Of a stretch of DNA of 64,000 bases, positions 28,138 through 60,600 are shown in pieces. A program made the position numbers and the translations under genes. The notes under the pieces were generated by a model. It worked only from the letters and a program-made list of their open reading frames with translations, did not search any database and was not told where the DNA came from. Numbering within the stretch: the first letter of the stretch is position 1; each line of letters opens with the position of its first letter. Source of the stretch: Escherichia coli (GTDB lineage Bacteria; Pseudomonadota; Gammaproteobacteria; Enterobacterales; Enterobacteriaceae); NCBI RefSeq assembly GCF_024502345.1, contig NZ_JALDNN010000001.1. The stretch is one strand, 5' to 3'.

Positions 28138-28229
28138 AGAGACAATGAATCGCTTATTCAGCTTCATCATCTTGTTGCGCTCCTTTCATGAACTAAGCCA
28201 CATATTGCCACTGGCGCAAGGTGCGCGCA

Positions 28230-28425
28230 GAGGGAGGACAATCGCCTCCTCCCCCTGCACCCCCGGGCTCTGGCGAACAAAATCGCCGCTGCGCGGTACC
28301 TTCAGCTTATCCCCTTCGGCTACCGGGTCGGGCGCGAGGTAACGTCCTTGTAAGACGCGCCCTCAGCCCACATCCATGTGGGCTGCCCCGGCCTTCGGGG
28401 AACGCTTCAGCGATTTTGACGCCAC
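28230..28425. other. GC-rich multi-hairpin non-coding island (unassigned)
   Basis: Local hairpins at 28232-28250, 28330-28362 (GGGCGCG/CGCGCCC), 28366-28383 (GCCCACAT/ATGTGGGC) and 28386-28400 (CCCCG/CGGGG). They are enclosed by long-range pairing of 28272-28286 with 28410-28423 (4 + 9 bp). Flanking DNA is AT-rich. Confidence 0.4.
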
Positions 28426-28504
28426 CAACACCGGAGCTGTTTGCAAATCAAGTACAAAAAATATCTAGTTCCTGACCTGACAACTTATATGCCATATCTG
28501 ATTT

Positions 28505-28745: not shown

Positions 28746-28800
28746 GGTGATGCTGCCAACTTACTGATTTAGTGTATGATGGTGTTTTTGAGGTGCTCCA

Positions 28801-29076
28801 GTGGCTTCTGTTTCTATCAGCTGTCCCTCCTGTTCAGCTACTGACGGGGTGGTGCGTAACGGCAAAAGCACCGCCGGACATCAGCGCTATCTCTGCTCTC
28901 ACTGCCGTAAAACATGGCAACTGCAGTTCACTTACACCGCTTCTCAACCCGGTACGCACCAGAAAATCATTGATATGGCCATGAATGGCGTTGGATGCCG
29001 GGCAACCGCCCGCATTATGGGCGTTGGCCTCAACACGATTTTCCGCCATTTAAAAAACTCAGGCCGCAGTCGGTAA
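28801..29076 (+). CDS. insA: IS1 InsA
   Basis: 91-aa [46 protein letters not shown], recognised as IS1 InsA. Confidence 0.95.
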
Positions 29077-29498
29077 CCTCGCGCATACAGCCGGGCAGTG
29101 ACGTCATCGTCTGCGCGGAAATGGACGAACAGTGGGGATACGTCGGGGCTAAATCGCGCCAGCGCTGGCTGTTTTACGCGTATGACAGGCTCCGGAAGAC
29201 GGTTGTTGCGCACGTATTCGGTGAACGCACTATGGCGACGCTGGGGCGTCTTATGAGCCTGCTGTCACCCTTTGACGTGGTGATATGGATGACGGATGGC
29301 TGGCCGCTGTATGAATCCCGCCTGAAGGGAAAGCTGCACGTAATCAGCAAGCGATATACGCAGCGAATTGAGCGGCATAACCTGAATCTGAGGCAGCACC
29401 TGGCACGGCTGGGACGGAAGTCGCTGTCGTTCTCAAAATCGGTGGAGCTGCATGACAAAGTCATCGGGCATTATCTGAACATAAAACACTATCAATAA
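29052..29498 (+). CDS. insB: IS1 InsB' frame (expressed as the InsAB' transposase by -1 frameshift at the A6C site)
   Basis: ORF-track frame 28995..29498 contains ...[21 protein letters not shown]...[25 protein letters not shown]. The slippery site ttaaaaaactc lies at 29050-29060. Confidence 0.9.
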
Positions 29499-29513
29499 GT
29501 TGGAGTCATTACC

Positions 29514-29522
29514 TGCCACGCG
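29514..29522. repeat. IS1 target-site duplication, right copy
   Basis: TGCCACGCG directly abuts the IS1 right end. Confidence 0.9.
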
Positions 29523-33304: not shown

Positions 33305-33477
33305 AAAGTTCTTTGACGTTGCATTGCTGGCGTAAATGTCAGCAATGCAGCATTTCCTCACGATTCTCCTTTGACGATCGCACTTTTTGCTCGTTATGAT
33401 GGCGTCGCTAGCCTCAGTAAATCCTTACTCCGGCGGTGCGCAACCCGTGCGCGTGAACCACTATCTGAATGCTCATC

Positions 33478-42791: not shown

Positions 42792-43523
42792 TTAAATGCC
42801 GAGTGGGAAAATATCATAGCCTTGTTCTTGCCAACTGGTGAGTTGCTGTTGTTGGGCGGAGGTTCGATTTTCACCGCACCACACCAGCAATGTACGGCCT
42901 TCGAACAGTTCAGGGCGTAGTTGATTGAGCGAGTGGGCGAGGACATCAATGCGCCATCCTTGTTGACTGGCAATCCAGCCCTCCAGCCACAGACGGGTGG
43001 TATCGTGAATATTCCAGCCAACCACCAGCGCATCTTTACCCTGTTTTTTACGTGCCGAAGCCAGACAGATGGCGATGTAGTTGATCAGTACGCCGTCGAG
43101 GATCGCCAGCAGCGCCTGGAGAGTCGGTTGTTGGCACTGAAGCCGTCGACGCAGAGGAATAAACAAATGCGTGGTGAGCGTCTGGGCGGGGTAATCCTGA
43201 CCGCGCTCTTTGATCCACGTTCGCAGGCTATGCAGATTGCCGCTTTGCAAGTAAGTCAGTAATGTTTCTTGCTGATCGCGCCAGCCGTTCTGCACATCAA
43301 CATTTTCATTACTGAGCAGCATTTTAACTTTGCTGACCTGCACGCCGTTGTCGATCCAGCGTTTGATCTCGCGGATCCGGTCAATATCGGCATCGTTGAA
43401 CAGCCGATGACCGCCGTCTGTCCGTTGCGGTTTCAGCAATCCGTAACGCCTCTGCCACGCGCGTAACGTGACAGGGTTAATATCACAAAGCAACGCCACT
43501 TCACCAATTGTGTAAAGCGCCAT
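42792..43523 (-). CDS. mlrA: MerR-family regulator of csgD/curli
   Basis: 243-aa ORF MALYTIGEVALLCDINPVTLRAWQRRYGLLKPQRTDGGHRLF (MerR HTH). Confidence 0.94.
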   Translation of the reverse strand: MALYTIGEVALLCDINPVTLRAWQRRYGLLKPQRTDGGHRLFNDADIDRIREIKRWIDNGVQVSKVKMLLSNENVDVQNGWRDQQETLLTYLQSGNLHSLRTWIKERGQDYPAQTLTTHLFIPLRRRLQCQQPTLQALLAILDGVLINYIAICLASARKKQGKDALVVGWNIHDTTRLWLEGWIASQQGWRIDVLAHSLNQLRPELFEGRTLLVWCGENRTSAQQQQLTSWQEQGYDIFPLGI

Positions 43524-43744
43524 CGTCTCACCCTTGCTCGCGAGGTCCCGGTTTAACTTTAGACGCAGTTTTGCGAACCAGGTAGTTTTGCCCGTTTTTT
43601 GTGCATTTATAGGGTGATTTTATTTTTGCCAGGCGATTTTGAGTGATCGTACTCACGAATTCTCATTTTTCTGCAAGAGTTCAAAGAAAGTTAAACGCAG
43701 GCAATGTATGTTACGCGTTTTAAAGGGAAGTGTGGTTTGCGGGT

Positions 43745-45430
43745 ATGTACGATTTTAATCTAGTGTTGCTGCTGCTTCAGCAGATGTGCGTTTTTTTAGT
43801 CATTGCATGGTTAATGAGTAAAACGCCATTATTCATACCGTTAATGCAGGTCACGGTTCGTCTGCCGCATAAATTTCTCTGCTACATCGTCTTTTCCATC
43901 TTCTGCATCATGGGCACCTGGTTTGGGTTGCACATTGACGATTCTATTGCCAATACCCGTGCGATAGGCGCGGTAATGGGCGGCTTACTCGGCGGTCCGG
44001 TCGTCGGTGGGCTGGTTGGCCTGACCGGCGGGTTACATCGATATTCGATGGGGGGCATGACCGCGCTAAGTTGCATGATCTCGACCATCGTTGAAGGATT
44101 GCTCGGCGGCCTGGTACACAGCATCCTGATCCGTCGCGGGCGCACTGATAAAGTCTTTAACCCCATTACCGCCGGTGCCGTCACGTTCGTCGCTGAAATG
44201 GTGCAAATGTTGATCATCCTGGCGATCGCCCGACCTTATGAAGATGCGGTGCGTCTGGTGAGTAATATTGCTGCGCCAATGATGGTCACCAATACCGTCG
44301 GCGCGGCGCTGTTTATGCGTATATTGCTCGATAAACGCGCGATGTTTGAAAAATACACTTCGGCTTTTTCTGCCACTGCGCTGAAAGTGGCTGCCTCGAC
44401 GGAAGGCATTTTGCGCCAGGGGTTTAACGAAGTGAACAGCATGAAAGTGGCACAGGTGCTGTATCAGGAGCTGGATATTGGTGCAGTCGCGATTACCGAT
44501 CGAGAGAAATTGCTGGCCTTTACCGGAATTGGTGACGACCACCATTTACCCGGCAAACCGATATCTTCGACTTACACCTTAAAAGCGATTGAAACCGGTG
44601 AAGTGGTCTACGCTGATGGCAACGAAGTACCTTATCGTTGCTCTTTGCATCCGCAATGCAAACTGGGGTCGACGCTGGTAATTCCGTTGCGTGGTGAAAA
44701 TCAGCGGGTGATGGGCACCATCAAATTGTATGAAGCCAAAAACCGTTTATTCAGTTCAATCAACCGCACGCTGGGCGAGGGGATTGCGCAACTGCTTTCG
44801 GCGCAGATCCTCGCCGGGCAATATGAGCGGCAAAAAGCGATGCTCACCCAGTCAGAGATCAAACTGCTTCACGCCCAGGTGAACCCCCATTTTTTGTTTA
44901 ATGCGCTTAACACCATTAAAGCGGTGATCCGTCGCGACAGCGAACAGGCCAGCCAGCTGGTGCAGTATCTTTCCACTTTTTTCCGCAAAAACTTAAAGCG
45001 GCCTTCGGAGTTTGTTACTCTCGCCGACGAAATTGAACATGTGAACGCTTATCTGCAAATTGAAAAGGCGCGCTTCCAGTCGCGGTTGCAGGTCAACATT
45101 GCTATTCCGCAAGAATTATCCCAGCAGCAATTGCCCGCGTTTACCCTGCAACCGATAGTGGAAAACGCCATTAAACATGGGACATCACAACTGCTGGATA
45201 CAGGGCGAGTGGCAATCAGCGCCCGACGTGAGGGGCAACATTTGATGCTGGAGATCGAAGACAATGCCGGTTTGTATCAACCGGTAACCAATGCCAGTGG
45301 GCTGGGGATGAATCTGGTGGATAAGCGTTTACGTGAACGGTTTGGCGATGACTATGGGATAAGCGTCGCCTGTGAGCCTGATAGTTACACCCGAATAACC
45401 TTACGACTACCATGGAGGGACGAGGCATGA
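43745..45430 (+). CDS. btsS: LytS-type sensor histidine kinase (pyruvate sensing)
   Basis: ORF track 566 aa. Trimmed to [17 protein letters not shown], giving 561 aa. 5TM-LytS region, GAF and His_kinase/HATPase regions. Confidence 0.93.
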
Positions 45431-46146
45431 TTAAAGTCTTAATTGTCGATGATGAACCGTTAGCACGGGAGAACCTGCGCGTATTTTTGCAGGAGCAGAG
45501 CGATATTGAAATCGTTGGTGAGTGTTCAAACACCGTGGAAGGGATCGGCGCGGTGCATAAACTGCGCCCGGATGTGCTGTTTCTCGATATCCAGATGCCG
45601 CGCATCAGTGGTCTGGAAATGGTGGGGATGCTCGACCCGGAACATCGTCCGTATATTGTTTTTCTCACCGCGTTTGACGAATACGCCATTAAAGCCTTTG
45701 AAGAACACGCCTTTGATTATCTGCTGAAGCCAATTGATGAAGCGCGACTGGAGAAAACGCTGGCGCGTTTGCGGCAGGAACGCAGCAAGCAGGATGTTTC
45801 GCTGTTACCAGAAAATCAACAGGCGCTGAAATTTATCCCTTGTACTGGGCATAGTCGGATTTATTTGCTGCAAATGAAAGATGTGGCATTTGTCAGCAGT
45901 CGGATGAGCGGTGTCTACGTTACCAGCCACGAAGGGAAAGAGGGCTTTACCGAATTGACATTACGTACCCTGGAAAGTCGTACACCACTACTGCGCTGCC
46001 ATCGTCAGTATCTGGTTAACCTCGCGCATTTACAGGAGATTCGTCTGGAAGATAACGGCCAGGCCGAGTTGATTTTGCGTAATGGCTTAACCGTGCCGGT
46101 CAGCCGCCGTTATCTGAAAAGCTTAAAAGAGGCGATTGGCCTGTAA
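45427..46146 (+). CDS. btsR: LytTR-family response regulator
   Basis: ORF track 244 aa. Trimmed to [16 protein letters not shown], giving 239 aa. ATGA overlap with the btsS stop. Confidence 0.94.
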
Positions 46147-46192
46147 AAGACTGCTAAAATGGCTTTTTGCCTCATCAACACCTGAAGGCCTC

Positions 46193-46663
46193 ATGCTAAG
46201 TAACGATATTCTGCGCAGCGTGCGCTACATTTTGAAAGCCAATAATAATGACCTGGTGCGTATTCTGGCGCTGGGTAATGTCGAAGCCACCGCGGAACAG
46301 ATCGCCGTCTGGCTACGTAAAGAAGACGAAGAGGGTTTTCAGCGTTGTCCGGACATTGTTTTGTCGTCATTCCTCAATGGCCTGATTTATGAAAAACGCG
46401 GCAAGGATGAGTCTGCTCCGGCACTGGAGCCGGAACGTCGCATTAATAACAACATCGTGCTAAAAAAATTACGCATCGCGTTTTCGCTGAAAACCGATGA
46501 CATTCTGGCGATCCTCACCGAACAGCAGTTCCGCGTTTCGATGCCGGAAATTACGGCGATGATGCGTGCACCGGATCATAAAAACTTCCGCGAATGCGGC
46601 GATCAATTTTTACGTTATTTTCTGCGTGGACTGGCAGCGCGCCAGCATGTGAAGAAAAGCTAA
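46193..46663 (+). CDS. yehS: DUF1456-family protein
   Basis: ORF track 175 aa. Trimmed to MLSNDILRSVRYILKANNND, giving 156 aa. Confidence 0.85.
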   Translation: MLSNDILRSVRYILKANNNDLVRILALGNVEATAEQIAVWLRKEDEEGFQRCPDIVLSSFLNGLIYEKRGKDESAPALEPERRINNNIVLKKLRIAFSLKTDDILAILTEQQFRVSMPEITAMMRAPDHKNFRECGDQFLRYFLRGLAARQHVKKS

Positions 46664-46672
46664 GACGGGTAT

Positions 46673-46697
46673 GGCGGCCATGCGAAACATGGCCGCC
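46673..46697. terminator. Bidirectional hairpin between convergent yehS and yehR
   Basis: ggcggccatg-cgaaa-catggccgcc (10-bp GC-rich stem). Confidence 0.65.
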
Positions 46698-46703
46698 GAC
46701 AGA

Positions 46704-47165
46704 TTATTTCACTTCTTTAAAACCAGCGGCTTTCATCACCAGTTCCATTTGCGCCATAGTGATACCTTTTTTGGCATCTTCAGCAGAAACGTTGATTCCT
46801 GAAATACCCTGCAGGGCTTTAAAATCCACTTTTTCCATATCGATAGTCACGTTTTCCTGCGCGTAGGTATCGGTATAGGTTAATTTTTCTTCAACACCCG
46901 CGATGTTTTTGTATTTGGCGCTTAACGGCTCAAGTGTCTTGGCAGCGTCTTCTTTGGTGGTTGCACCAATAGAGGCAAATTGAATTTTGGTTTCTGAAGA
47001 TTGCTTAAGCACCTTGTCACCTTTGTAGACATAGGTAATGGCAATTTCAGTGCCGTTCAGATTGGCGCTGAATTTCTTCGATTCTTCTTTGTCACCGCAG
47101 CCAGCAAGAGAGAAAACCAGAACAGATGCAACAACAAGGGAAAACAGCTTATTGAAAGCCTTCAT
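46704..47165 (-). CDS. yehR: DUF1307-family lipoprotein
   Basis: ORF track 157 aa. Trimmed to MKAFNKLFSLVVASVLVFSLAGC (lipobox), giving 153 aa. Confidence 0.88.
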   Translation of the reverse strand: MKAFNKLFSLVVASVLVFSLAGCGDKEESKKFSANLNGTEIAITYVYKGDKVLKQSSETKIQFASIGATTKEDAAKTLEPLSAKYKNIAGVEEKLTYTDTYAQENVTIDMEKVDFKALQGISGINVSAEDAKKGITMAQMELVMKAAGFKEVK

Positions 47166-47289
47166 GTAAAACTCCATTTTATTTAATCAAGGAACTGGTG
47201 ACTCTCACCAGGGGCTATATAGGATATGCCTAATACCGTGGTGTGAGCAGTCCGGAACTGGAGTAGAACTCTTAGTAAAAAGCACTATT

Positions 47290-49293
47290 TCATCCTTGTT
47301 GCTGAAGCATGGGGAATAATTGTTCGCACAGCAAAACGCAGTTATTCATTGCTTCTACCCGTGCCTCGCTTTCTGTATTACGAAATTGTCCCAATACATG
47401 TGCCAGCCGATAAAAAACCACCGCGGTGAGGTCATTCGCCAGCAACTCTGCCTGACCAATAGCACTCTGTTCCTGATAGCGCCAGCCGTTATGGAGCAGT
47501 TGAATAAGTAATGCCTGGCAGCGCATCAGCAACTGATGAGCAGTAGACGGCACAGGCAGAACGCTGACAGAAGGTAGTGATGCCACCACAGGCGCAGTTT
47601 CTGCGTCCAGCGCCCAGGCACGAGTCTTTGTCATCATTACCTGTGGTTCCAGTGTCAATTGCCCATCAACAAAACTGACAAAGCCAGAAACCAGACACAC
47701 GGGGTCGTCTGTTTGTTGCAAAAGCGCCGCCATGCGTTCAATGGCATAAGGCGCGCTGGCTGAGGCTGGCAGTGATAACGTCAGCAGATTATCTTCACCT
47801 TCGCCGCTGATTACCTGCGCATCCAGCGTCTGGCGGCTGCTATCCCAACCGAGCGAAATACACTCAGCGACCGGCAGAATAAATAAGTTATCGACCTGAT
47901 TAAGAGGCCGTATGCAGGAGGGGGGACGCTGGCGTAAATATTCCCGCAAAGCCACAATGCCCGGCTGGCGTAACGGCGCGCTCAACATTTGCCAGGCATC
48001 AGGCGACAGCGGCACAACGCTGCTTAAGCGGTTGCGGGTAGCTAACAGCAGCTCGCCATCGGCACTGCGTTTTGCTGCTTGTGAAACAATTTGCCCACCC
48101 GCCAGTGCGCCAGCCTGAAAACTAAACAGCCGACGCGTAGCTGCCGGTGAGTTTTCCTGTTCACTTCGCGGCCAACTGCGCGAAAGGTGCAAAATACTGC
48201 CGGTGTCGGGATCGGTAAACCAGATGCGTAAACCATAATGCTCAATATCCTGCCAGCAACGCATACCTAAAGACACCAGCCGCAGATGATCAAGCTTTGC
48301 TTCTCCGGCAATGCCAGAGCCAACGACCGTGCGCCACGGCACAGGAGGAACTTCACCAACACTGTCGCGCCGCGCCATCTCTTGTGCGCAATTTAATCGA
48401 CTGTTTAATGCCGCAAGCTGACGTAAGCATTCTCCGGCATGATAGTGGCTGGCGCGGGCGTGGAAGGCATCAACGCTGGCGCGCAGTTGCCGTAGCGATT
48501 CACTCACCCATCGCCAGTTGCAGCGTTCCGCTGCTTGCTGCGCGCGGCTGAAAGCGGCCTCGTAGTGAATAAGCGGCTGGCTGATGCCGCCCAGCCATAA
48601 TGCCTGGCTTAGTTGCTGAACATATTGACGACACGTTTTGCCTTCTTCGCTGGCAAACAGATCGTCAGATGATGTGACGTGTTCGCTGCGCATCTGCCAG
48701 ATTAAATGAGTCAATTCCGGTTGCTGCGCTTTTGCCTGGACAAAGGCCTGTACTGCCAGTACGACATGTTCGCAAAGTGTGCCTTCAATACAATCACAAC
48801 GGGCGAAACGAATGCTGCTACGGGAATAAAAACGCACATCGCTCATCGGTAAGCGGGCAGAGGGAATTTCGCCCGGCGTACAGAACAACTCAATGGTGAT
48901 GCCTTTAGCGACCAGCGCCTGCGCGCGTTTGCGGGTGGCATCGGGCAGGGTAGCCAGTTCTTCCAGCCAGATTGCCGGATCCCACTCTTCTTCTTTTTCT
49001 GTGGGCTGGACGGTGGCACAAAGTCGTTGATAACTTAACACCAGCATCACGCGATGACGGCACATGCCGCTGGCCCCGCAGCTGCACTGAGCCTCTTTCA
49101 GTGCCTGGCCGTTCGCCAGCTGGGTACGGACACCGTCACTGAAGGTGGCGATTAAAGCGCCGTTCTCATGGCTGATCTCCGGGACGTTGCCATTTTCCAG
49201 TTCCTTAAGACTGCGCTTAACAAAACCGGCATTGCTTAACGCTGTCAGGGCCTGCGGTGTCAGTTCTAATAATTCCGGACGTAGTGAATTCAT
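47290..49293 (-). CDS. yehQ: SWIM zinc-finger protein of the yeh cassette
   Basis: Start set at MNSLRPELLELTP, whose ATG overlaps the yehP stop (ATGA); this gives 667 aa. Two CxCx5CxH motifs (CSCGASGMCRH; CDCIEGTLCEH). Confidence 0.8.
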   Translation of the reverse strand: MNSLRPELLELTPQALTALSNAGFVKRSLKELENGNVPEISHENGALIATFSDGVRTQLANGQALKEAQCSCGASGMCRHRVMLVLSYQRLCATVQPTEKEEEWDPAIWLEELATLPDATRKRAQALVAKGITIELFCTPGEIPSARLPMSDVRFYSRSSIRFARCDCIEGTLCEHVVLAVQAFVQAKAQQPELTHLIWQMRSEHVTSSDDLFASEEGKTCRQYVQQLSQALWLGGISQPLIHYEAAFSRAQQAAERCNWRWVSESLRQLRASVDAFHARASHYHAGECLRQLAALNSRLNCAQEMARRDSVGEVPPVPWRTVVGSGIAGEAKLDHLRLVSLGMRCWQDIEHYGLRIWFTDPDTGSILHLSRSWPRSEQENSPAATRRLFSFQAGALAGGQIVSQAAKRSADGELLLATRNRLSSVVPLSPDAWQMLSAPLRQPGIVALREYLRQRPPSCIRPLNQVDNLFILPVAECISLGWDSSRQTLDAQVISGEGEDNLLTLSLPASASAPYAIERMAALLQQTDDPVCLVSGFVSFVDGQLTLEPQVMMTKTRAWALDAETAPVVASLPSVSVLPVPSTAHQLLMRCQALLIQLLHNGWRYQEQSAIGQAELLANDLTAVVFYRLAHVLGQFRNTESEARVEAMNNCVLLCEQLFPMLQQQG

Positions 49294-50426
49294 GACTGAA
49301 GATTCTCCGCAAGCCATGATGCCAGTTCGCCCGGTGTCATGGCGGCTATTTGTGCGCCGACATTAACCAGCGCCTGGGCCGTATCGCGGTCATAGCAAGG
49401 CGTTGCTGTGCTATCGAGCGCCGCCAGTCCCAGCACTTTGATGCCGCTCTGGACACACTTTTTCACCTGATGCGTCAGCAATGATGATGAACCCCCTTCG
49501 TAAAAATCGCTCACGAGGATAATGACGCTTTTTGCTGGTTGTTCAATAAGTTGCCGACCATATTCCACGGCACTGGCGATATTGGTCCCGCCGCCCAACT
49601 GTACTTTCATTAATAACTCTACCGGATCGGCAACGTCTGCCGTGAGATCAACGACGCTTGTGTCAAACGCCACCAGATGGGTACGAATGCCGGGTAACTG
49701 CCACAAACAGGCCGCCATCACCGCAGAGTGGATCACCGAGTCCACCATCGATCCGCTTTGATCAACCAGTAAGACCAGTTGCCATTGTTCACTGTGGCGT
49801 TTAATGCGGCTGTTAAAGCGGGGGGATTCGATATACAACTTGCCGTGTTGCGGGTGCCAGTGTTGCAGGTTGGCGCGCAGAGTACTTTTGAAATCAAAGT
49901 TTCGCGCCAGTGGAATAAATGAGCGGCGACGGCGATCGCGGACACCAGAAAAAGCCTGACGAACTTCCTTTGCCAGTCGAGCCATAATTTCTTCAACAAC
50001 CTGGCGCACTATCCGGCGGGCGGCAGCCAGTACTTCGGGGTTCATCAGATGTTTGGTGTGCAAAACGGCGCGTAGCAGACTTTCAGAAGGCTGCATACGT
50101 TCCAGCACGTCGAGATTCGTCACCACATCTTCAATGCCGTAGCGCAGTACGGCATCGCTTTCCAGCCGCTCAATCACCTGTTGCGGAAACAGCGTGTGAA
50201 TACTGTTGATCCACTCAGGGGTGGTGAGATTTGAGCTACCTAATCCACCGGAACGTTCACCACGCTGGAGCCGTTCAGGATCGCGCCCATACAGCCACTC
50301 CAGCGCGTGGTCTATCTGCCGGGCGTTGTCATCCAGCCCACAAAGCGTCGTTTCTGCCGCTTCGCCAAGAATTAATCGCCAGCGTTGTAGCTCACGGGTG
50401 GTCAGAAGATCGTTCAGTTCAGACAT
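49290..50426 (-). CDS. yehP: VWA-domain protein of the yeh cassette
   Basis: ORF track extends to 50654. Trimmed to MSELNDLLTTRELQRW, giving 378 aa. MIDAS motif LLVDQSGSM. The start overlaps the yehM stop by 8 nt. Confidence 0.88.
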   Translation of the reverse strand: MSELNDLLTTRELQRWRLILGEAAETTLCGLDDNARQIDHALEWLYGRDPERLQRGERSGGLGSSNLTTPEWINSIHTLFPQQVIERLESDAVLRYGIEDVVTNLDVLERMQPSESLLRAVLHTKHLMNPEVLAAARRIVRQVVEEIMARLAKEVRQAFSGVRDRRRRSFIPLARNFDFKSTLRANLQHWHPQHGKLYIESPRFNSRIKRHSEQWQLVLLVDQSGSMVDSVIHSAVMAACLWQLPGIRTHLVAFDTSVVDLTADVADPVELLMKVQLGGGTNIASAVEYGRQLIEQPAKSVIILVSDFYEGGSSSLLTHQVKKCVQSGIKVLGLAALDSTATPCYDRDTAQALVNVGAQIAAMTPGELASWLAENLQS

Positions 50427-52698
50427 GGAAAACTCCCCAGTTTTGCAGCGATGCCAGTGCCTGCTGTTCGAGTTGTTGATGATGTGCAATGGCTTGTGGT
50501 GGACAATGCAACGGCATTTGCAGCGCCGAAACGGGAAGTTGCGCCAGTTGATAATGCTCAAGCACCTGATGCGCCAGCGTCCCGCGTTCTCGTGGTGGTA
50601 GCCAGGCCATCGCCGCGCGTAAATCGGGCAGGGCATTGATAAAATTGGCATCACTCAGTTGATTTAAATGACTGCTGAAACCGGCGATAAATGCCGGCTG
50701 ACAGGCCAGTTGATGGCGGGCCAGCGCCAGCAAACCGTGCAGCGCTTCGCCGGATTGTGCCGGGGATAACTGCGCCAGCATCGTCAGCGCCGCTTCGGCA
50801 CTAGCGTTGGGATGTTCCAGACGCATCAGTGCGCCAAGAGCCGCGCCGCGATCCAGCGCCGGGGCATGGATTGCCTGACTGCGTCGCTCCAGTAAGGCTA
50901 CCGCCGCAGAAAGAGAAACGCCGGGTAAATTAACGCCGCTATATAGATCGCGCAGGATATGGCAAAGCGCCTGCCAGCTATGCATGTGAGCGTGAAACTC
51001 CTTTTCATCTGGTCTGCCGTTAGATTCACACAGCCACAGCGTGCGATCGATAGCCGCGCATAACGTCGTTTGTAATATCTGCGCGCCTTGCATACCGCTA
51101 ATTTCATCCAGCCGCCATAAGGCATATAGCACTTCCAGCGCCTGGCCCATTTCGGCAAATTGATTTTCCTGGGCGATTAATAATGTGAGTTGCTCCAGTA
51201 ATTGTTGACTGAAGGACGCCAGACCCGCTAACGCCGCCTGGCTAAGACATGTGGTGATACTGCCGATTCCACCCGCGTCCAGCATATCGGTTTCTAATTT
51301 ATGGCGTGCGGCTTCCTGGAGTGTGGCACCAAAGCAGGCGGCCTCAATCAATGCCGCATGCTGGCTAAGCGGGCGGGTTAATTTCCAGCGTTCTTCACCG
51401 TTGCCTGCAAGTGTCAGTGTGCTTCCCTGCTGGCGTACAATCCCTGGGATCTCCAGTATTGCCAGCCGATGTAACACCTGACTTTGCGCTAGTCCATTGG
51501 GGTTAAAGCGATTTAAGGTAAGCTCCGCCGGAAGAGAGATTGCGGTACGTTCCAGTTCGCAGGTGACATCTTTTGGCAGAGGCGGTTGTGGCGTAGAAGG
51601 GGCAAGTTTACCGAATCCGTCACCCGCTAATGTGTCTATCAACGTTAGCAGAATCGGATCGGTATCGGGATGAATAACGCCGCGATAGCTCCATGGCAAC
51701 GGCGCATTCAGGGATTCTTTAATCAGCGAGCCTGCTAAGGCATCCAGCCAGTCAGTGCGTAACGGTAGTGTATGACCGCGCAACTGTGCCAGCGCCATCG
51801 CATGCAGATGAGCGGCAGCCATATCCGCGGTCGAAGCAGGCAAGTGGTGTTGGCGCAAACGGGTAAGAACCGTTTTTAGCAGTTGTTCTCCCGCCTGCTG
51901 TAAGCCCCACTGCCAGCACCAGCTTTGCCAGACCGGGGCAGGCATTCCTGAAAGGTATCCTGCCAGCACATCAAGGCGCTTTTCACTGTAGGGTGTGAGA
52001 TAACAACCTGTAACGGCATCTGCCAGCGAGGGCAATTCTGGCTTGTTAATGTCCTGCGGACATTCGCGCCACATTTTTGCCAGTGCCGGAGCGTGCCAGC
52101 CACCGCAGACGACTAACACGTCGCCATTGTTTTGCTGCATCGCCCATGCAATCCAGCGGGCCATGAAGGCTTCGCGCTGACGATTGAGAGCATCTCCGGG
52201 GGAATCGCCCCGCAGTTGTGCAAAATAGTGCGCCAGCGCAGAGGGTAATGCAGTTTGCTGGCTTTCATCTTCGAATAAGTGATCCCACAGGGTATCGCTG
52301 TTATCCATGCGGGTGGCACGCAGCAGTAAGGTCTGGCTTTCATCTTGCGTATCAGGCGAATCGTTCTCTTCTTCACTCTGCGCCCAGCAAGGCAAATCGA
52401 TGAAGTAAGTTTATGCCTGAATACGACGTGCGGCTTGTAGCGCCTGCCACTCCGGCGAAAATTCAGCAAATGGCGTCCAGGCACCACGCCCGGGGGCCGC
52501 ACCGTCCTGATACTGGCAATAACTGTAAATAGCTACCGGAAGCTGGTGGGCTAAAAACAGTTCGTCTACCCGGTCATTAAAATCAGCCGGGCCTTCAATC
52601 AACACGTATCGTGGCCGCTGGCTTTCGATTAATGATTTGACCAGCCGGGCGCAGGCCGGGCTATGATGCCGGATGCCGACAATTAACGGCTCGCTCAT
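50419..52698 (-). pseudogene. yehM: yehM interrupted by an in-frame TAA at codon 96
   Basis: A single frame runs from the ATG at 52698 (MSEPLIVGIRHHSPACARL) to the TGA at 50419, 760 codons, matching the remembered 759-aa YehM. The codon at 52411-52413 (plus tta, minus TAA) is a stop: ...AARRIQA*TYFIDLPCWAQSEEE. The ORF track splits it into 52411..52866 and 50419..52395. Confidence 0.8.
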
Positions 52699-52708
52699 GC
52701 ATCTTTCC

Positions 52709-53797
52709 TCACGGCAGGCGGTGGCGGGCTTGATAATAAGCCTGCCAGTGAGCTTCTTTATGTGTGGCGACACGCTGTTCGAAGTAACGGCGCAGACGAG
52801 CGCGATCTTCTTCGTTATCTTTGACGATGGTTCCGGCAATACAGTCCACCAGATCGGCTGGCTCACCTGCGCGATTCGCTAAAAACCAGGCGCGGACGCC
52901 CACAGCGTGGGCCACGTTCACGGCTTCAGCGGTGGACATAATCGCTGTTAGTGTATCCATTGACGTTTTCTTTTCGCCGTTGGCACGCAGATCGCGGAAG
53001 GTGCGGACCAGTAACTCCAGTACCGCGTCAGGCACTTTATGCGGAATACCGCTATGGGCCAGCAAACGCGCCGAAGCACTGGCGACAAGCTCCAGCTCCT
53101 GGGCGAAATCCATAATCGGAAAGACAGTTTCAAAATCGAAGCGACGCTTTAGCGCAGCACTCATTTCATTGACGCCGCGATCGCGGGTATTGGCAGTGGC
53201 AATAATATTAAAGCCTTCTCGCGCATAGAGCTGACTGGCTTCACCAGTGAGTTCCGGCACCGTCATCACCCTGTCAGAAAGCATACCTAACAGACAGTCT
53301 TGCACTTCCAGCGGTGTACGCGTTATCTCTTCAAAACGGACGATTTTGCCGTCGCGCATTCCCTGGTAAAGCGGGGCAGGGACCAGCGCTTCCGTTGATG
53401 GACCATGATTGATAAGCAGGGCGTAGTTCCAGCCGTACTTGATTTGATCTTCGGTAGTAGATGCGCCGCCCTGGATGGTTAACCCGGCATCGCCGCTAAT
53501 AGAGGTTGCCAGTAATTCAGACAGGAGAGATTTTGCGGTGCCAGGTTCCCCCACCAACATCAAACCGCGTCCGGTGGCAAGAGTGACTAACATACGTTCG
53601 ACAGCGGAGGGACTAATCACCACTTTACGGCTAATATTTTGCGCGCTATCGCCAAGGATAAAAGCACGGGCCGCAGGCAAACTTAACTGCCAACCGGGCG
53701 GGCAAGGTGCGTTATCATTTTGTTTTAATTTTGCCAGTTCATCGGCGTATAACACAGCAGCAGGCGGACGCTGCAGATGATTATTCTGCGGTGACAT
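52709..53797 (-). CDS. yehL: MoxR-like AAA+ ATPase of the yeh cassette
   Basis: ORF track 384 aa. Trimmed to MSPQNNHLQRPPAAVLYADEL, giving 362 aa, with aggga as SD. Walker A GEPGTAKS. IIATANTRDRGVNEMSAALKRRF is typical of MoxR/AAA_5. Confidence 0.9.
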   Translation of the reverse strand: MSPQNNHLQRPPAAVLYADELAKLKQNDNAPCPPGWQLSLPAARAFILGDSAQNISRKVVISPSAVERMLVTLATGRGLMLVGEPGTAKSLLSELLATSISGDAGLTIQGGASTTEDQIKYGWNYALLINHGPSTEALVPAPLYQGMRDGKIVRFEEITRTPLEVQDCLLGMLSDRVMTVPELTGEASQLYAREGFNIIATANTRDRGVNEMSAALKRRFDFETVFPIMDFAQELELVASASARLLAHSGIPHKVPDAVLELLVRTFRDLRANGEKKTSMDTLTAIMSTAEAVNVAHAVGVRAWFLANRAGEPADLVDCIAGTIVKDNEEDRARLRRYFEQRVATHKEAHWQAYYQARHRLP

Positions 53798-53905
53798 ATA
53801 TTCATCCCTGAAATGTATTAATGAAATAAACGATATTTTACGCGCAATAAATGTTTGGCGCATTAGTTGTTTGAGCGAAAAATATCTGGAAAGCAGATCA
53901 CAGTA

Positions 53906-53991
53906 AATAAAAAAACCTGCTGGTGAGGCAGGTTCTTTTATTTACTATTTTCAGGCCTAACACCACAGCCTGTGCAACATCGTGTTCCAAC
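53906..53991 (-). ncRNA. orzP: Orz-type antitoxin sRNA (orzP-like), predicted
   Basis: Minus-strand promoter TTGCAA(54021-54026)-17 nt-TATAAT(53998-54003). The predicted 5' end coincides with an 18-nt seed (53974-53991) complementary to the zor leader at 54140-54157. Terminator hairpin 53914-53934 followed by a U-run. Length about 86 nt. Confidence 0.6.
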
Positions 53992-53997
53992 GAACGA

Positions 53998-54048
53998 ATT
54001 ATAACCACGGCTGGACCCCGTTGCAATTAAGATAATGAGATTTATAAT
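53998..54048. promoter_or_regulatory. Divergent orz/zor promoters sharing a palindromic -35 (copy 1)
   Basis: TTGCAA (54021-54026) is its own reverse complement. TATAAT lies 16 nt to the right on the plus strand (54043-54048) and 17 nt to the left on the minus strand (53998-54003). Confidence 0.6.
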
Positions 54049-54229
54049 CCTGACTGTTGGGACGTTGCGCCGGATCGAACCTATTTCAAGTCCTGGCTAC
54101 CGGACGGGGGGTGCTGCAGGTAGTGCCCTGATCCGGAGTGCAACATCGTGGTCCAACATACGTAAACCAGTATCGACAGGCAGTGTAAGGGTAAGGTGCT
54201 GGTGTTGCGCTCCTTAATAAGGAGAGCGG

Positions 54230-54319
54230 ATGGACTCGCTGACACAAAAGTTAACCGTGCTCATTGCTGTACTGGAGCTATTAGTGGCTCTGTTACGGTT
54301 GATTGATTTGTTGAAGTAA
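54230..54319 (+). CDS. zorP: Type I toxin, ZorO/ZorP family (29 aa)
   Basis: Hand translation gives MDSLTQKLTVLIAVLELLVALLRLIDLLK-TAA, with SD aaggag 7 nt upstream. One residue differs from copy 2. Hydrophobic helix typical of type I toxins. Predicted leader about 175 nt. Confidence 0.8.
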   Translation: MDSLTQKLTVLIAVLELLVALLRLIDLLK

Positions 54320-54340
54320 CGGGCAAATTGAAACGCATCT

Positions 54341-54370
54341 AAGGGGGAAAACCGCTTCCCCCTTTAATAA
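54341..54370 (+). terminator. zor copy 1 terminator-like hairpin
   Basis: aaggggga-aaaccgct-tccccctt followed by taataaaat. Confidence 0.4.
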
Positions 54371-54515
54371 AATGATTACTGTTTTTATTAATTCATCATA
54401 TAACTCATTTTTATTTATAAATTCATCGATTTTATATTCAACGCACCATTTGACCGGGATGTGAATATTTATGTTGGGCTATTGGCAAAAAATATCTGGA
54501 AAGTAGATCGCAGAA

Positions 54516-54599
54516 AATAAAAAAACCTGCTGGTGAGGCAGGTTCTTTTATTTACTACAGTGACGCTAACTTGCTGATTGTGCAACATTTCGTACCAAC
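54516..54599 (-). ncRNA. orzO: Orz-type antitoxin sRNA (orzO-like), predicted
   Basis: Minus-strand promoter TTGCAA(54629-54634)-17 nt-TATAAT(54606-54611). 18-nt seed 54582-54599 is complementary (17 Watson-Crick pairs plus 1 G.U) to the zor leader at 54748-54765. Terminator hairpin 54524-54544 followed by a U-run. Confidence 0.6.
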
Positions 54600-54605
54600 G
54601 AATAA

Positions 54606-54656
54606 ATTATATCCATATCCACACTCCATTGCAATTCAGTGAGTGAGATTTATAAT
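54606..54656. promoter_or_regulatory. Divergent orz/zor promoters sharing a palindromic -35 (copy 2)
   Basis: TTGCAA 54629-54634. Plus-strand TATAAT at 54651-54656 (16-nt spacer). Minus-strand TATAAT at 54606-54611 (17-nt spacer). Confidence 0.6.
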
Positions 54657-54837
54657 CCTGCCCGTTGGGAGGTTGTGCCGGATCGGACCAATTTTAAGTC
54701 CTGGCTGCCGGACGGGTGGTGCCGCAGGCGGTGCCCTGATCCGGAGAGCAACGTTTCGTACCAACATACGTAAACCAGTATCAACAGGCAGTGTAAGGGT
54801 AAGGTGCTGGTGTTGCGCTCCTTAATAAGGAGAGCGG

Positions 54838-54927
54838 ATGGACACGCTGACACAAAAGTTAACCGTGCTCATTGCCGTACTGGAGTTATTAGTGGCTCTG
54901 TTACGGTTGATTGATTTGTTGAAGTAA
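54838..54927 (+). CDS. zorO: Type I toxin ZorO-like (29 aa)
   Basis: Hand translation gives MDTLTQKLTVLIAVLELLVALLRLIDLLK-TAA, with SD aaggag. Matches the ZorO peptide of E. coli O157:H7 as I remember it. Confidence 0.8.
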   Translation: MDTLTQKLTVLIAVLELLVALLRLIDLLK

Positions 54928-54948
54928 CGGGCAAATTGAAACGCATCT

Positions 54949-54975
54949 AAGGGGGAATACCGTTTCCCCCTTTAA
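54949..54975 (+). terminator. zor copy 2 terminator-like hairpin
   Basis: aaggggga-ataccgtt-tccccctt followed by taa. Confidence 0.4.
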
Positions 54976-54981
54976 GAAAGC

Positions 54982-55036
54982 TATACTCGTCATACTTCAA
55001 GTTGCATGTGCTGCGACTTTAATTATCTAGAGTATA
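54982..55036. repeat. Mini-ERIC (ERIC termini without the core)
   Basis: tatactcgtcatacttcaagttgcatgtgctgcg + actttaattatctagagtata. The left 34 nt are identical to the left end of the full ERIC at 23437. Abuts the yehK stop codon (55037). Confidence 0.75.
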
Positions 55037-55354
55037 TTATTCTATTTCTTGGTTGAATATATTCTGTAGTTCACGATTAAAAATTGCTATTACAGTTTCA
55101 GGTGATTCACCTCGTAATTTCCGCTCATCAATACACTCATCTCTTATATAAATCAACGCATCATTTATTAGCGGGTCAGCATCTTCTCGATCACGTTGAT
55201 GAAATGTTGGATGTAGCCGGAATCGCTCCAGTCGATAGACGGAACCTGTAAATAATTCAGAGCATTTATGGATCTCAAGTCTGAAGGAAAACGGATCTTC
55301 AGGTACAGGGACCTCATAATCGTAAATAGCAACTAGCTCTTTTTGCACGATCAT
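55037..55354 (-). CDS. yehK: Small uncharacterised protein of the yeh cassette
   Basis: 105-aa ORF with no motif I recognise. AT-rich (about 37-38% GC in two sampled 60-nt lines). Confidence 0.75.
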   Translation of the reverse strand: MIVQKELVAIYDYEVPVPEDPFSFRLEIHKCSELFTGSVYRLERFRLHPTFHQRDREDADPLINDALIYIRDECIDERKLRGESPETVIAIFNRELQNIFNQEIE

Positions 55355-55414
55355 CGCTTTCCCCGCTGGTAAGTCGTGTAGATAACGGGCAGTCGCATCA
55401 CTGCCCGCTGTGTT

Positions 55415-57622
55415 TTAATGGAAAATGACGTCAGGTGCGCTTAACGCCTCACTCAAATCAAACACATCAAGTTCGGCAAAAGTGACGGATTTATTGTCAC
55501 GGTACACTCGAAGAGAACGGAAGCTCATTAGCGCTTTGCTATCAACATTGTAGTGGTTAAAACCGGGTGAAAACTTAAGGACCAGCCGGTACTCGCCCAG
55601 GTCATAGACAAATGCATCCTCATAGCCTGACTCCCAGCCTTTGTATCGCATTCCCATAAGCTGCCCAACGGTAGCGGATTTACCTTCCCAGCGAGTCAGG
55701 CTGTTACTGGTTGACTCGTCAGGTGTGAGCAGCACCGTGCACCGCGCCAACTGGCGAAAAGGCGGCATAATTTCGTAATCGGCAAAAAGCTGTGCAAATT
55801 CACTGCGCATTTCTACTGTCATTTCTAACGGGTGGGCAATGCCAATCAGAGCGTCCGCAGGCAGGTCAATTGGCTCATCTTGCGCATTGCAGAACTCCCC
55901 CTCTGCGGCCACACGAAAGGCGTTGAGTAAACAACGCGGTTCATTTGCCGGATAAGCCCCCCATATTAATCGCTGGGTAACCAGACGGGTAAAGGGATGA
56001 TTAACAAACAGAGAATGAAAATCTGCCAGCGACCAGCGTCGGGTGGTACGTAGGGCCGTTTCAAGACGCGGGAGCAGGTTTTTGCTCACCTGAGTGGCAT
56101 CTTTTTTTAGCCCTTTTAGTCGGGCCAGTGCCTCGGGCGCTTTCAGTTGATCGTCATCGGCGCGCAACCGGGGAACGCTTTTCTGGCGAACGTTTTGCTG
56201 ATCAAAGATAACCGGGTTGAGGTTTTCATCGAAGCGAACGGTAAACTGCCGGGGACCAAAATCAAAACTCAACGCCTGCGGATCATCAAGGCCCAGGGTT
56301 GGGACTAATCTGTCCGCTAGCTCTTCCTGGCTTAGCCCGCGATTTTCTGCGACCACCTGAAGAAATTCCGCCGCGTTATCACGTAAGGGGCGGGATTTCG
56401 CCCGTTGCGATATATGATGCAGCTGTATCAGCGCCATATCATTATTCATCAGGGTAAGGATGTTCAGGCCACTGACAGCACGGGCAGATTTGCCTTCTTG
56501 TGGCCAGCCGAGGATCTGTGTCGTTAGATCCCGTGCCGTGCTTTCGTCACCAAAGAGACTTAACGCCAGAAATGCCCAGTTGTCTTTTACGGGGGCACCA
56601 GCTTGTTGCCACGCAGTGAAGAGATCCCAGGCAAAAGCTGCCAGCGTTTGTGGCTGGCAGAACGTTTTCAGTTGTTCCAGCCCGCTATAAAAACGTCCCC
56701 CCTGGGTAAAGCGCAGCATTTCGCCGATAATTTCCAGAGCGTCATCGGTAACAGGTTGATTATTAGTGATAAGGCGCGGCCTGGACCACATTTGCGGATG
56801 CCAGAAATCAGGGGCTTTTGGAATGCGTGCCGGGTAAATCTCTATTGGACTCTGTTTAAGTAATTGTTCCAGGGCAGGCCATAGATCTGTACGCTGCCAA
56901 CGATTGGCTACAGTTTGTAGCAATTCGCCATGCCCATGTTCGTAAAGTAAACGCAGGGCAAGTAATGCAGCTTCGCTTTTATCGCTAGATTTGGTGAAGA
57001 CAAGAGGGATAAGTGCAGTAGCCGTATGTTCCGGCCATTGTAAAATCCACTGGCGAGCCAGATTACGCTGGCCCGCAAAACGCTGCCAGCAGCTTTCCTC
57101 TGCCAGAGAGAGATGCTTACGCAGTCGGAGATCGAATTCGTTATAGGTTTCTGAGCGATAACCATAGCCATAATCCTCGTCCTGATACTGCAATGTCACT
57201 ACCAGAGGATCACTCTCATAACACCGCGCAATAAACTGGCGTGCAATCACCACCTCAGTCGCATATTCCAGCCCCTCTTGTTGGACGATTTCGTCGAGCA
57301 ACTGTTGGCTGTCATTTTGCGCGATACAGGCTAGCGCCGCCATTGTCCGGGGCGGGATTGAGGGTTTGTGTTCGCCGATCAAGTTGATGGCCTGCGTGAT
57401 GGCGGACTGCCACTCCAGTGAAAAATTTTCATAACGCCAGACAATGTTTTTTTTCTTCTCAGCTTTTTGTAGCAATTCATCACCCAGTGTCTGAATGATG
57501 CTTTCAGTGATAACAGGCACTGGTTCGCCCGGCCAATTGCGATGGCTGAGTGGTGTTTTACCATTTTTATATTTCAGTTCCAGTTGGGCGTTATCAGCCA
57601 GCCACGGTAATTCCTTGTCCAT
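55415..57622 (-). CDS. yehI: DUF4132-like protein, paralog of YehH/MolR with the central region missing
   Basis: 735-aa ORF. N-terminal 180 aa and C-terminal about 550 aa align with YehH residues about 110-295 and about 697-1264. The YehH 296-696 equivalent is absent (junction ...SLAEESCWQRFAGQRNLARQWILQWPEH). I remember K-12 YehI as 1210 aa. Confidence 0.8.
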   Translation of the reverse strand: MDKELPWLADNAQLELKYKNGKTPLSHRNWPGEPVPVITESIIQTLGDELLQKAEKKKNIVWRYENFSLEWQSAITQAINLIGEHKPSIPPRTMAALACIAQNDSQQLLDEIVQQEGLEYATEVVIARQFIARCYESDPLVVTLQYQDEDYGYGYRSETYNEFDLRLRKHLSLAEESCWQRFAGQRNLARQWILQWPEHTATALIPLVFTKSSDKSEAALLALRLLYEHGHGELLQTVANRWQRTDLWPALEQLLKQSPIEIYPARIPKAPDFWHPQMWSRPRLITNNQPVTDDALEIIGEMLRFTQGGRFYSGLEQLKTFCQPQTLAAFAWDLFTAWQQAGAPVKDNWAFLALSLFGDESTARDLTTQILGWPQEGKSARAVSGLNILTLMNNDMALIQLHHISQRAKSRPLRDNAAEFLQVVAENRGLSQEELADRLVPTLGLDDPQALSFDFGPRQFTVRFDENLNPVIFDQQNVRQKSVPRLRADDDQLKAPEALARLKGLKKDATQVSKNLLPRLETALRTTRRWSLADFHSLFVNHPFTRLVTQRLIWGAYPANEPRCLLNAFRVAAEGEFCNAQDEPIDLPADALIGIAHPLEMTVEMRSEFAQLFADYEIMPPFRQLARCTVLLTPDESTSNSLTRWEGKSATVGQLMGMRYKGWESGYEDAFVYDLGEYRLVLKFSPGFNHYNVDSKALMSFRSLRVYRDNKSVTFAELDVFDLSEALSAPDVIFH

Positions 57623-57631
57623 GCTCTTTCC

Positions 57632-60600
57632 TTATTCAAACAGGGCTTCAATATCGTTAATTAGCTCGCTGGCGGTGATGGCATCGAGTACGGAGAGCTG
57701 CGCTTCCTGTGTTGAATTACTCCCCCAGCCATAGCTTTCCGCTTTGCCTTCCCATAGCCACAGCTTGCTTAAGAGCTGCTCAGCGCTAAGTTCGGCTGGT
57801 GACATACCCACTGCAAAGCCTTCATCGATTTCCATGATTAACGACCAGCGGCCCAGAGGTTTGATCATCCAGCCGATCCAGCCTCCATCCTGTGGTTCGC
57901 CCTTTATCCAGCCTTTATTCGCCAGCCCCATTACCCGACCGCTCGGGCATTTTCTGCTTGCCCAGCGGGTCAGTTCGCTGGCATTGCGCTCGGTTTCTGT
58001 CAGGGCGTAACTGTTACGGTCGAGCTGGCGGAACGGCGGTAGCAGTTCGTAGTCGGCAAAAAGCTGCCCAAATGCGGCGGCATCCGTCGGTGATATTTCC
58101 AGAACGTGAGGAATACCAACAGAGATATCGCCTTCCGGCAGGGTGAAAAGATCATCGTCAGCGGTGCTGTAGCTGTTATCTTCCGCTACGCGAAAGCAAG
58201 CCAGTAGCTGGTTTTCGGCGCTATAAACACCCCAAATCAGACGGCGGGTTAAGTGGCGAACCAACGGATGCTCAACCAGGAAGAGCTGGAAGTTTTCCGG
58301 CGACCAGCGGCGGCGCAGGCACATGGCGGATTCCAGCCTTGCTACCTGCTGGGCGGCGACGGTACGCGCATCTTTTTTCAGCAATTTGTAGCGGTTAACC
58401 GCATCGTTCGCCTGTGATTCATCATCGCTTTTATTGGGTTTAGGTAAGTCTTTCAGGCGGCTGCCGGAAACATCACGCACAAACGGTTTTAAGGTTTCAT
58501 CAAAGCTGACGGTGAACTGGCGTGGGCCAAAATCCAGCAGCAACGAACCGTTATCATCCAGACCGAGATCCGGTGCTAACCGATCTTCAAGCTCCGCCAC
58601 TGTCAGTTCGCGACTTTCGGCAATGTCGGCAATTTTCTCTTTCGCCCGCTCCTGTAATGCTTTGAATTTCAGTTTCTGGGCAATGCCGTTAAGCTGCATC
58701 AGGGCGATATCACTACCGATAGCGGCGAGAATATCCAACCCAACGGTGGCGCGTTTATGCTGAGATTCGCCAGGCCAGGCGCGGATTAATGGCGTCAGTT
58801 TGCGGGCGGTGTCATCGTTGCCGAGAACACCTAACGCAATGAACGCCCAGCTTTCTTTCGATGGCGCGCCCGCAGTCAGCCAGGCGGTAAACAGATCCCA
58901 GGCAAATTCAGCCAGTGAGTCGGCGGTACAGGCATCTTTCACCTGCAATAATCCCGGATACAGAGCCTCTTCCTGAGGGAAGCGGAGCATTTCACCGAGG
59001 TGCTGGAGTGCGCTATCGGGCAGTGATTGGGCGTTTGCTTTTAATACCGGGCGCGTCCAGAGCGATGGCTGATAAAAGGCCGGAAGAGTGGGGATTTTTG
59101 TCGGGTGATTATCTAAGGGATCGAGCGCAAGCAGAGCGTTCACCGCGTCTGTTACTTCCGGCTGGTTATAACGCCGGGCGATTTCTTGCAGTAATGGCTG
59201 ATGACCATTTTCGGTAAGCATACGCAAGGCAGCGCGGGCGTTATCCTGTGCTTCACCGGCTTTGCCGAGCGCCGCAGGCAGCAGGCCGGTAAGGGCATGT
59301 TCCGGGTATTTCAGCAGCCAGGTGCGGGCGTCTTGTCGTAGGGTTTTGAGTTTGTTGAAGGCGCGGGCGACGGCAGGAGCTAGCTCACTCGCTGCGAAGT
59401 AATTCGTGATGGGCAAGGCTTCCTGCGGATAGCGTGTAATTGAGTTAACTAAACCAGGTAAACCTTTGAGTCCAAAATGTAACATGGCGTATTCGGTATC
59501 GGTATGTGGAGATAGAGTAAGGGCATTCCATGCTTTTACTGCTTTCTCCAGCGGCAATGTTGTCAAAATCCCCAAATGCCAATAATGCCCGGTAGGTGAA
59601 TGAAACACCTTAAATTCACTTATTAAGGTTGAATAATCTTCATTTAGCCATGCCTCAACTACCGCTTCGGGAGCTTTAATATATGTACCAGCGATCCGTC
59701 GTTGAAAACCCATCCTTGCCAACAGGTTGGTAGTACTTTCTTCATGGCTAACCGTGATGTGTTGTGAATACCAGATATATTTCGCCAAAAGTTGATTACT
59801 GATTTCTTCTGTCATATAACAGATTGGCTCAATGCCTAATGGCGCTAAATCCAGCACCGGAATCGGCGATTTTTTCTTTTTCGAAAGCCATGGTGGGGAG
59901 ACTACTATGGCAGGCAGTAGATCGGCGCAGGCATGGTTTGAGGGCTGTGTCAGTTGTTGCTGGCATGATTTCAGTACGGCAACTGCGGGTGTCGAGAGCC
60001 AGGGAAGGACCTGTTCTGCCAGTGCTGGTTGTGAGATAAGCATTGTCATTAGCATAATGCGCCAACTGTTCTCTTCTTTTTGCCCAAGAAGTTCCGTCAG
60101 TGCCGCCATTGCTGCATGTGGGAACGCAGCAATGGCTTTCGTCATCCGATCGTGACAGCGTTTAGTTTGCCCGGCTACACGTATAAGCAGTGTCAATGCG
60201 ACCGGATGATTGATATGACGCAACACATCGGCGCAGTAGTCACTTGCGGCATAGGGAGCAAATCGGGGCAGGGCTGCAACACCTTGCTCCTGTAATACGG
60301 TGGCTGACCATATCGCACCACAATAGTAATCATCAAAAATGGCATATGGCTCGTGATATTTTTCTAATGAGGCAAGAATGTGCTCATCAGTCGCCACTAT
60401 TTTTAACCACTCAAGCGAGGGTAATTTTTTTTGCCCCAGTAGACGCTGGGCAATTTCATGTGCAATTTCTGGTTTTTCGGGTAATAACAAAGCAATTAAT
60501 GGTTGCCGCCATTCTGGAATATGTGGAATTGCGGCAATAAGTTTTTGTGCACATTTTTGCCAGAGAGACTCTTCCGCCAGTGATAAATGTTTACGTAGGC

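Follow-up and report, generated by a model that had tools for sequence, protein, structure and literature searches.

The 64,000-nucleotide stretch of Escherichia coli DNA analysed here (contig NZ_JALDNN010000001.1 of assembly GCF_024502345.1; hereafter the window) carries the yeh cluster, with genes and repeats in the order WGR plus DUF4132 protein (57632-61426), YehI (DUF4132), YehK, two tandem zor/orz repeats, YehL, YehM, YehP and YehQ. The first gene of yehLMPQ is yehL (52709-53797, minus strand), which is intact and encodes a MoxR-type AAA+ ATPase (AAA_5, E 1e-33). It is followed by yehM (50419-52698) and by two further intact genes on the same strand: yehP (49290-50426), which encodes a CoxE-like VWA protein (VWA_CoxE, E 4e-72), and yehQ (47290-49293), which encodes a SWIM zinc-finger protein of 667 amino acids. 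The tight packing of these four genes, recognised in a preliminary description of the sequence, is evident at every junction. Specifically, the TGA of yehL lies 10 nt before the ATG of yehM, whose Shine-Dalgarno sequence GAGGAAAG spans the yehL stop; the TGA of yehM and the start of yehP overlap by 8 nt at ATGTCTGA (ccATGTCTGA); and yehP and yehQ share the 4-nt overlap ATGA. At the same time, yehP has a Shine-Dalgarno sequence of its own, GGGGAG, 6 nt upstream of its start.

The adjacent MoxR-type ATPase and VWA genes that mark MoxR-VWA partner systems are present here as yehL and yehP. In placing the two in one tightly packed unit, yehLMPQ resembles the known MoxR AAA+/VWA systems (Pfam AAA_5 and VWA_CoxE; bpMoxR "MoxR-vWA ternary systems"), but it differs from them in additionally containing a DUF5682 protein and a SWIM protein. 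None of the seven cluster proteins matched an anti-phage defence profile of PADLOC-DB 2.0. The literature searched contained only incidental mentions of yehM, yehL, yehP and yehQ, and searches on MoxR/vWA/SWIM/WGR returned nothing specific. As for the repeats between yehK and yehL, they are two tandem copies of about 500 bp (53871-54371 and 54482-54979) that are about 87% identical, and each contains a minus-strand Rfam match to the OrzO-P antitoxin RNAs (53909-53984 and 54519-54592, with 99.9 and 88.8 bits, respectively). They constitute the zorO-orzO / zorP-orzP type I toxin-antitoxin pair and sit directly upstream of the yehL promoter region.

Within this otherwise orderly unit, the reading frame of yehM is interrupted. 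Translated on the minus strand from its ATG (52698), yehM starts MSEPLIVGIRHHSPAC and proceeds through ...QALQAARRIQA*TYFIDLPCWAQ..., the break being a TAA at codon 96 (52413-52411). After this ochre codon the frame stays open for 663 sense codons until the TGA at 50421-50419, so that codons 96 and 760 are the only in-frame stops, and the frame contains no other lesion. The preliminary description had reported the stop within RRIQA*TYFIDLPCWAQ, the further 663 open codons up to a TGA overlapping the start of yehP, and a total of 760 codons corresponding to an intact protein of 759 amino acids; re-translation from the ATG and inspection of the gene junctions reproduced all of this, and the 760-codon frame (2,280 nt) is as long as its intact counterpart in E. 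coli MLI023K1, where yehM spans 2,280 nt and is annotated as "DUF5682 family protein". The program-made list of open reading frames, in contrast to this single interrupted frame, splits the gene into an upstream-extended N-terminal fragment (52411-52866) and, as had also been noted at the outset, an open reading frame of 658 amino acids beginning at the TTG at 52395 (50419-52395). Since the yehM stop is one specific base, chance is not at issue, and its significance rests on comparison with other genomes.

That comparison places the origin of the stop in a single substitution. The 451 nt around codon 96 are matched in 5,217 of 5,426 complete E. coli genomes, and the top matches, with a single mismatch (99.8% identity), are three genomes, MLI023K1 and MLI023K2 among them. 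The mismatched position is the first base of codon 96, which reads CAA in MLI023K1 and TAA in the window; moreover, it is the only difference between the window and MLI023K1, the nearest complete E. coli genome, across all 2,280 nt of yehM (nt 286 of the gene). Hence the early suggestion that a single change from CAA to TAA would suffice describes the event exactly: a glutamine codon was altered by a C-to-T change on the minus strand at window position 52413. A Dcm hot spot was considered as the cause of this transition and rejected, as the context TTCAGGCACAA has no CCWGG site.

The same comparison speaks to the age and frequency of the allele. A 41-mer centred on the T, for which megablast cannot seed a match unless the T is present, was found in none of the 5,426 complete E. 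coli genomes; the version with C has matches in 4,788. Likewise, a 36-mer with the T was absent from the metagenome collection, where the same 36-mer with an N at the variable site matched 101 contigs, all 101 of which have C. An exact-pattern scan of a collection of species-representative genomes matched neither the T allele nor the N version; these representatives evidently differ elsewhere in the 36-mer, which makes scans of that collection uninformative on the allele. The absence of the T 41-mer, the 4,788 genomes with C and the uniform C of the metagenome contigs indicate that CAA is ancestral and that the TAA is derived, very recent and rare. We found no mention of the Q96* allele in the literature searched, and complete RefSeq genomes of E. 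coli lack the allele, yet it does occur in public draft assemblies.

These draft assemblies are important because a gene that differs from its closest complete relative by one base only is also what a sequencing or assembly error in a gene that is really intact would look like. The same TAA is present in three further assemblies, each 99.98% identical to the window, which come from different projects and differ from the window and from one another elsewhere. Specifically, GCA_050022275.1 (contig JBAOKM010000034.1) contains the true stop together with the rest of yehM and differs from the window at 54526 and 48462; Logan SRR24000611 likewise contains the true stop and the rest of yehM and differs at 49343; and GCA_001484085.1 (LLYC01000096.1, a contig found in four samples), which was identified through the shortened YehI (735 aa) of the window, reads TAA at codon 96 and differs from the window at two positions. 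Furthermore, the two of these three assemblies that cover yehI also share a private deletion in that gene, described below, and the site lies outside any homopolymer run. Given that the stop recurs in at least three other non-identical assemblies, it is inherited rather than an artefact of one assembly; this disposes of the sequencing or assembly error that the preliminary description had named as a possible refutation, and an explanation of that kind now has next to no chance of being correct. These assemblies identify the TAA as an allele that is fixed in a small clone of E. coli. The exact 735-aa YehI and the exact YehQ carry the NCBI name Escherichia coli and are present also on a contig of 4.74 Mb. 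It is worth adding that most contigs recovered by an exact look-up of the 95-aa N-terminal fragment were rejected as carriers of the stop: contigs L004-L011 are about 97% identical to the window and end at codon 95, and such ends are a selection artefact of looking up an exact sequence.

A stop shared by inheritance could nonetheless mark a genuine boundary between two genes, and it is informative to examine the site in light of YehM homologues. Those from Escherichia marmotae, Klebsiella, Erwinia, Serratia, Massilia, Variovorax, Burkholderia and others are single proteins of about 760-830 amino acids that cover 99-100% of the YehM query. In an alignment of 30 homologues, position 96 is a sense residue in all 30 (Q in 16, E in 7, H in 2, R in 2, and others in the remainder), and it is flanked by the invariant residues A95, F99, D101 and P103. 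No split or stop at position 96 was seen among the homologues examined in many genera, so the other outcome that might have overturned the initial interpretation, orthologues that generally consist of two separately initiated genes, does not occur among them.

The nature of the protein adds to this picture. Intact YehM matches Pfam DUF5682 (PF18934; E 7e-99, 332.6 bits against a cut-off of 26), which is its only Pfam match; NCBIfam has no model for it, no solved structure related to it by sequence was found, and the literature searched contained no mention of DUF5682. We modelled intact E. coli YehM with AlphaFold2 from the 30-homologue alignment, and the resulting confident model (mean pLDDT 84, pTM 0.78) has a highly conserved N-terminal alpha/beta domain spanning approximately residues 1-240 (window 51980-52698), with strands at 5-9, 31-37, 55-63, 71-77, 96-101, 194-199 and 228-236, followed by long HEAT-like helical repeats. 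Codon 96 corresponds to the first residue of the core strand 96-101 in this model. The translatable N-terminal fragment (52411-52698, minus strand; 95 codons and the stop) comprises strands 1-4 and contains 32 of the 157 invariant residues of YehM, including G8-x-R10-H11 and E35-G-P, while the invariant C198-G-G-x-H202 lies downstream of the stop. Presumably, neither piece could form the N-terminal domain alone.

This modelled domain also permits a tentative comparison with known folds. Proteins of the TIKI superfamily, among them ChaN, HopBA1, PMT and the erythromycin-esterase-family protein Bcr135, are described as having a core of parallel sheet and a catalytic 2His/2Glu motif (PMC6254334). 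The predicted N-terminal domain of YehM has a parallel beta-sheet core flanked by helices that is similar to known TIKI/TraB/ChaN/erythromycin-esterase members, and H11, E35, E143, E176 and H202, candidates for the His/Glu positions of such a motif, are invariant in the YehM alignment. The sequence-profile support for a TIKI/ChaN assignment is faint (ChaN Pfam, E 0.074), and for this reason we read the predicted TIKI/TraB/ChaN-like fold as a resemblance in structure rather than as proof of membership. A mildly useful by-product of the analysis is nonetheless a predicted TIKI/TraB/ChaN-like domain at the N terminus of DUF5682 proteins.

With the domain in view, it can be asked whether the two pieces might still make an active YehM, the 95-aa fragment acting together with a C-terminal protein restarted at the TTG at 52395 or later. 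The downstream frame is wholly intact, the TTG lies 15 nt past the stop, gene callers report the 658-aa open reading frame there, in public assemblies as well, and translational restarts near nonsense codons are known in E. coli. However, no Shine-Dalgarno sequence precedes either this TTG (codon 102) or the ATG at codon 131 (52308); the calculated duplex energies with the anti-Shine-Dalgarno sequence are +1.6 and +0.6 kcal/mol, respectively, compared with -6.2 kcal/mol at the true yehM start. Moreover, the break lies where a core strand begins within a single predicted alpha/beta domain and not at a domain boundary; neither piece would contain residues 96-101, among them the invariant F99 and D101; a product begun at TTG102 would miss 34 invariant residues; and a split here is found in no homologue of any genus examined. 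That the frame downstream is still intact follows from how young the mutation is, as nothing else separates the gene from that of the nearest relative. With no Shine-Dalgarno sequence at the TTG at 52395, restart is unlikely to yield a functional product, and the lack of complementarity at the downstream starts points to the 658-aa frame being a mechanical left-over; the same TTG frame is called downstream of an unrelated stop at codon 74 in other lineages, discussed below. Overall, we assign the proposal of a functional split gene only a very slim probability.

A related proposal is that the stop is leaky or suppressed, by ochre readthrough or by a suppressor tRNA, such that some full-length YehM is made and the operon remains partly functional. 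Stop codons are read through at a low level in E. coli, and suppressor alleles are known in nature, but UAA is the stop at which termination is most efficient in this species. In addition, there is no tRNA gene that could bear on suppression within the 64-kb window, and a stop at codon 96 is not conserved across relatives, hence there is no hint of programmed recoding or readthrough. We regard a leaky stop as highly unlikely, and nothing that we observed supports recoding, a functional split or an artefact at this codon. Instead, there is very good reason to consider yehM of this clone a recent pseudogene that arose through one C-to-T transition, CAA (Gln96) to TAA.

The consequences of such a lesion for the protein can be outlined from the sequence and the model. 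Ribosomes starting at the ATG at 52698 would terminate after 95 residues and release a fragment with the first four of the seven strands of the N-terminal alpha/beta domain, including the first G-x-R-H and E-G-P motifs. Synthesis would stop short of the other strands, of G-G-x-H as the second such motif and of the entire C-terminal region of helical repeats, and YehM function has probably been lost.

It is also worth considering what the stop might do to the genes that follow. Past the stop, 1,992 nt of yehM would be left free of ribosomes, and this part of the gene contains C-rich, G-poor windows of 78 nt with C/G ratios of up to 2.4. Rho-dependent polarity is known from the classical polar nonsense mutations in translationally coupled operons such as lac and trp, and the situation in yehM is similar to these in having an early stop, about 2 kb of untranslated mRNA and gene starts that overlap the preceding stop. 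Polarity on yehP and yehQ is accordingly plausible: their expression could be lowered through the loss of translational coupling at the 8-nt overlap and through Rho-dependent termination on the naked C-rich RNA. The parallel with lac and trp differs in that the polarity of yehM is deduced from sequence, in that yehP has its own strong Shine-Dalgarno sequence, and in that the yehLMPQ operon has been reported to be silenced by H-NS in K-12. Given the Shine-Dalgarno sequence GGGGAG, polarity could be partial, and given the reported silencing in addition, it may matter little in practice.

The yehM stop is not the only lesion in the cluster. In the window, yehI (55415-57622, minus strand) has an in-frame deletion of 1,425 bp, with a junction at approximately 57079-57089, that removes 475 codons and leaves a protein of 735 rather than 1,210 amino acids. 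Where the gene is intact, an imperfect 11-bp repeat, CTGGCAGCGTT / CTGGCACCGTT, borders this region on either side, and none of 3,220 matching complete E. coli genomes spans the deletion junction. The deletion and the yehM stop occur together in every assembly that covers both, and the small clone in which the stop is fixed carries this deletion as a private lesion. In the closest relative, MLI023K1, yehI is instead frameshifted, which is an independent lesion.

Other lineages have lost parts of the same cluster in different ways. A stop at codon 74 of yehM (W74*, TGG to TAG) is present in ERR9845865 and GCA_002244475.1 (region 3001-3222; contigs up to 1.8 Mb), and a frameshift at the same codon is present in GCA_018048765.1 (region 3001-3222). 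The 73-aa fragment of W74* yehM carries the NCBI name Shigella flexneri and is indexed in 158 collection blocks. The W74* allele, on contigs with proteins named Shigella flexneri, resembles Q96* in being a single-base early stop that leaves the rest of the frame intact and the same 658-aa TTG frame called, but the two differ in codon (74 versus 96) and in base change (TGG to TAG versus CAA to TAA), and the clone with Q96* is a different and much rarer one. In Shigella sonnei lineages 2 and 3, a deletion of about 7 kb removes yehM, yehL and zorO (PMC12795559). Here too the same locus has been lost in a host-restricted Escherichia lineage; however, that is a multi-gene loss as opposed to a point mutation, and the window retains yehL, yehP, yehQ and the zor/orz repeats.

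The independent W74* stop, frameshift and S. sonnei deletion show that loss of the yeh cluster is recurrent, and such repeated losses suggest that the cluster is dispensable in the gut and in lineages restricted to a host. The Q96* stop fits this wider pattern, in which an H-NS-silenced, dispensable cluster is lost independently in E. coli and Shigella. One can also imagine that the yehM stop and the yehI deletion are two selected hits, rather than neutral decay, which disabled a costly or self-harmful H-NS-silenced module consisting of a MoxR ATPase, a VWA protein, a TIKI-like protein, a SWIM protein and WGR/DUF4132 proteins. We consider this idea quite improbable; if it were true, the losses in Shigella flexneri, in S. 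sonnei and in MLI023K1 with its frameshifted yehI would mark the module as an antagonistic or conflict-type system that is advantageous to lose in some hosts. Taken by itself, Q96* is an ordinary, recent, clone-specific nonsense pseudogene and a fully familiar kind of event. As one more strain-specific pseudogene it has little importance alone, and its use is mainly as a clonal marker. It does carry a caution for annotation, in that the called "genes" of 95 and 658 amino acids are fragments of one dead gene, and, as a natural yehM knock-out with intact neighbours, it may have modest value for assigning a function to the uncharacterised yehLMPQ cluster.

Several features elsewhere in the window also merit mention. 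The relatedness of the window to MLI023K1 is mosaic: the btsSR-yeh region (43250-60274) is 99.87% identical, compared with 98.0-99.2% for the psuT-mglC and mdtQ-mlrA regions (within 1-43000), and for positions 1-24000 the best identity to any complete E. coli genome is 98.8%. The pattern suggests that a segment is recombinant or that the lineage has been sparsely sampled. Between yohP and mdtQ lies an IS1 insertion of 768 bp (approximately 28747-29514) that is absent from MLI023K1; its left inverted repeat, GGTGATGCTGCCAACTTACTG, begins at 28747, and an InsB-like open reading frame (28995-29498) matches NCBIfam transpos_IS1 with an E of 6e-42. Between dusC and yohP, a segment of about 270 bp (28157-28428) matches MLI023K1 in inverted orientation only, with 88% identity, and looks like a repeat-rich intergenic element. 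Finally, two Rfam matches lie on the plus strand: naRNA4, a REP-derived nucleoid-associated RNA, downstream of mglC (20747-20824, 85.8 bits), and the Peptidase-S11 leader motif upstream of pbpG (33393-33473, 72.8 bits).
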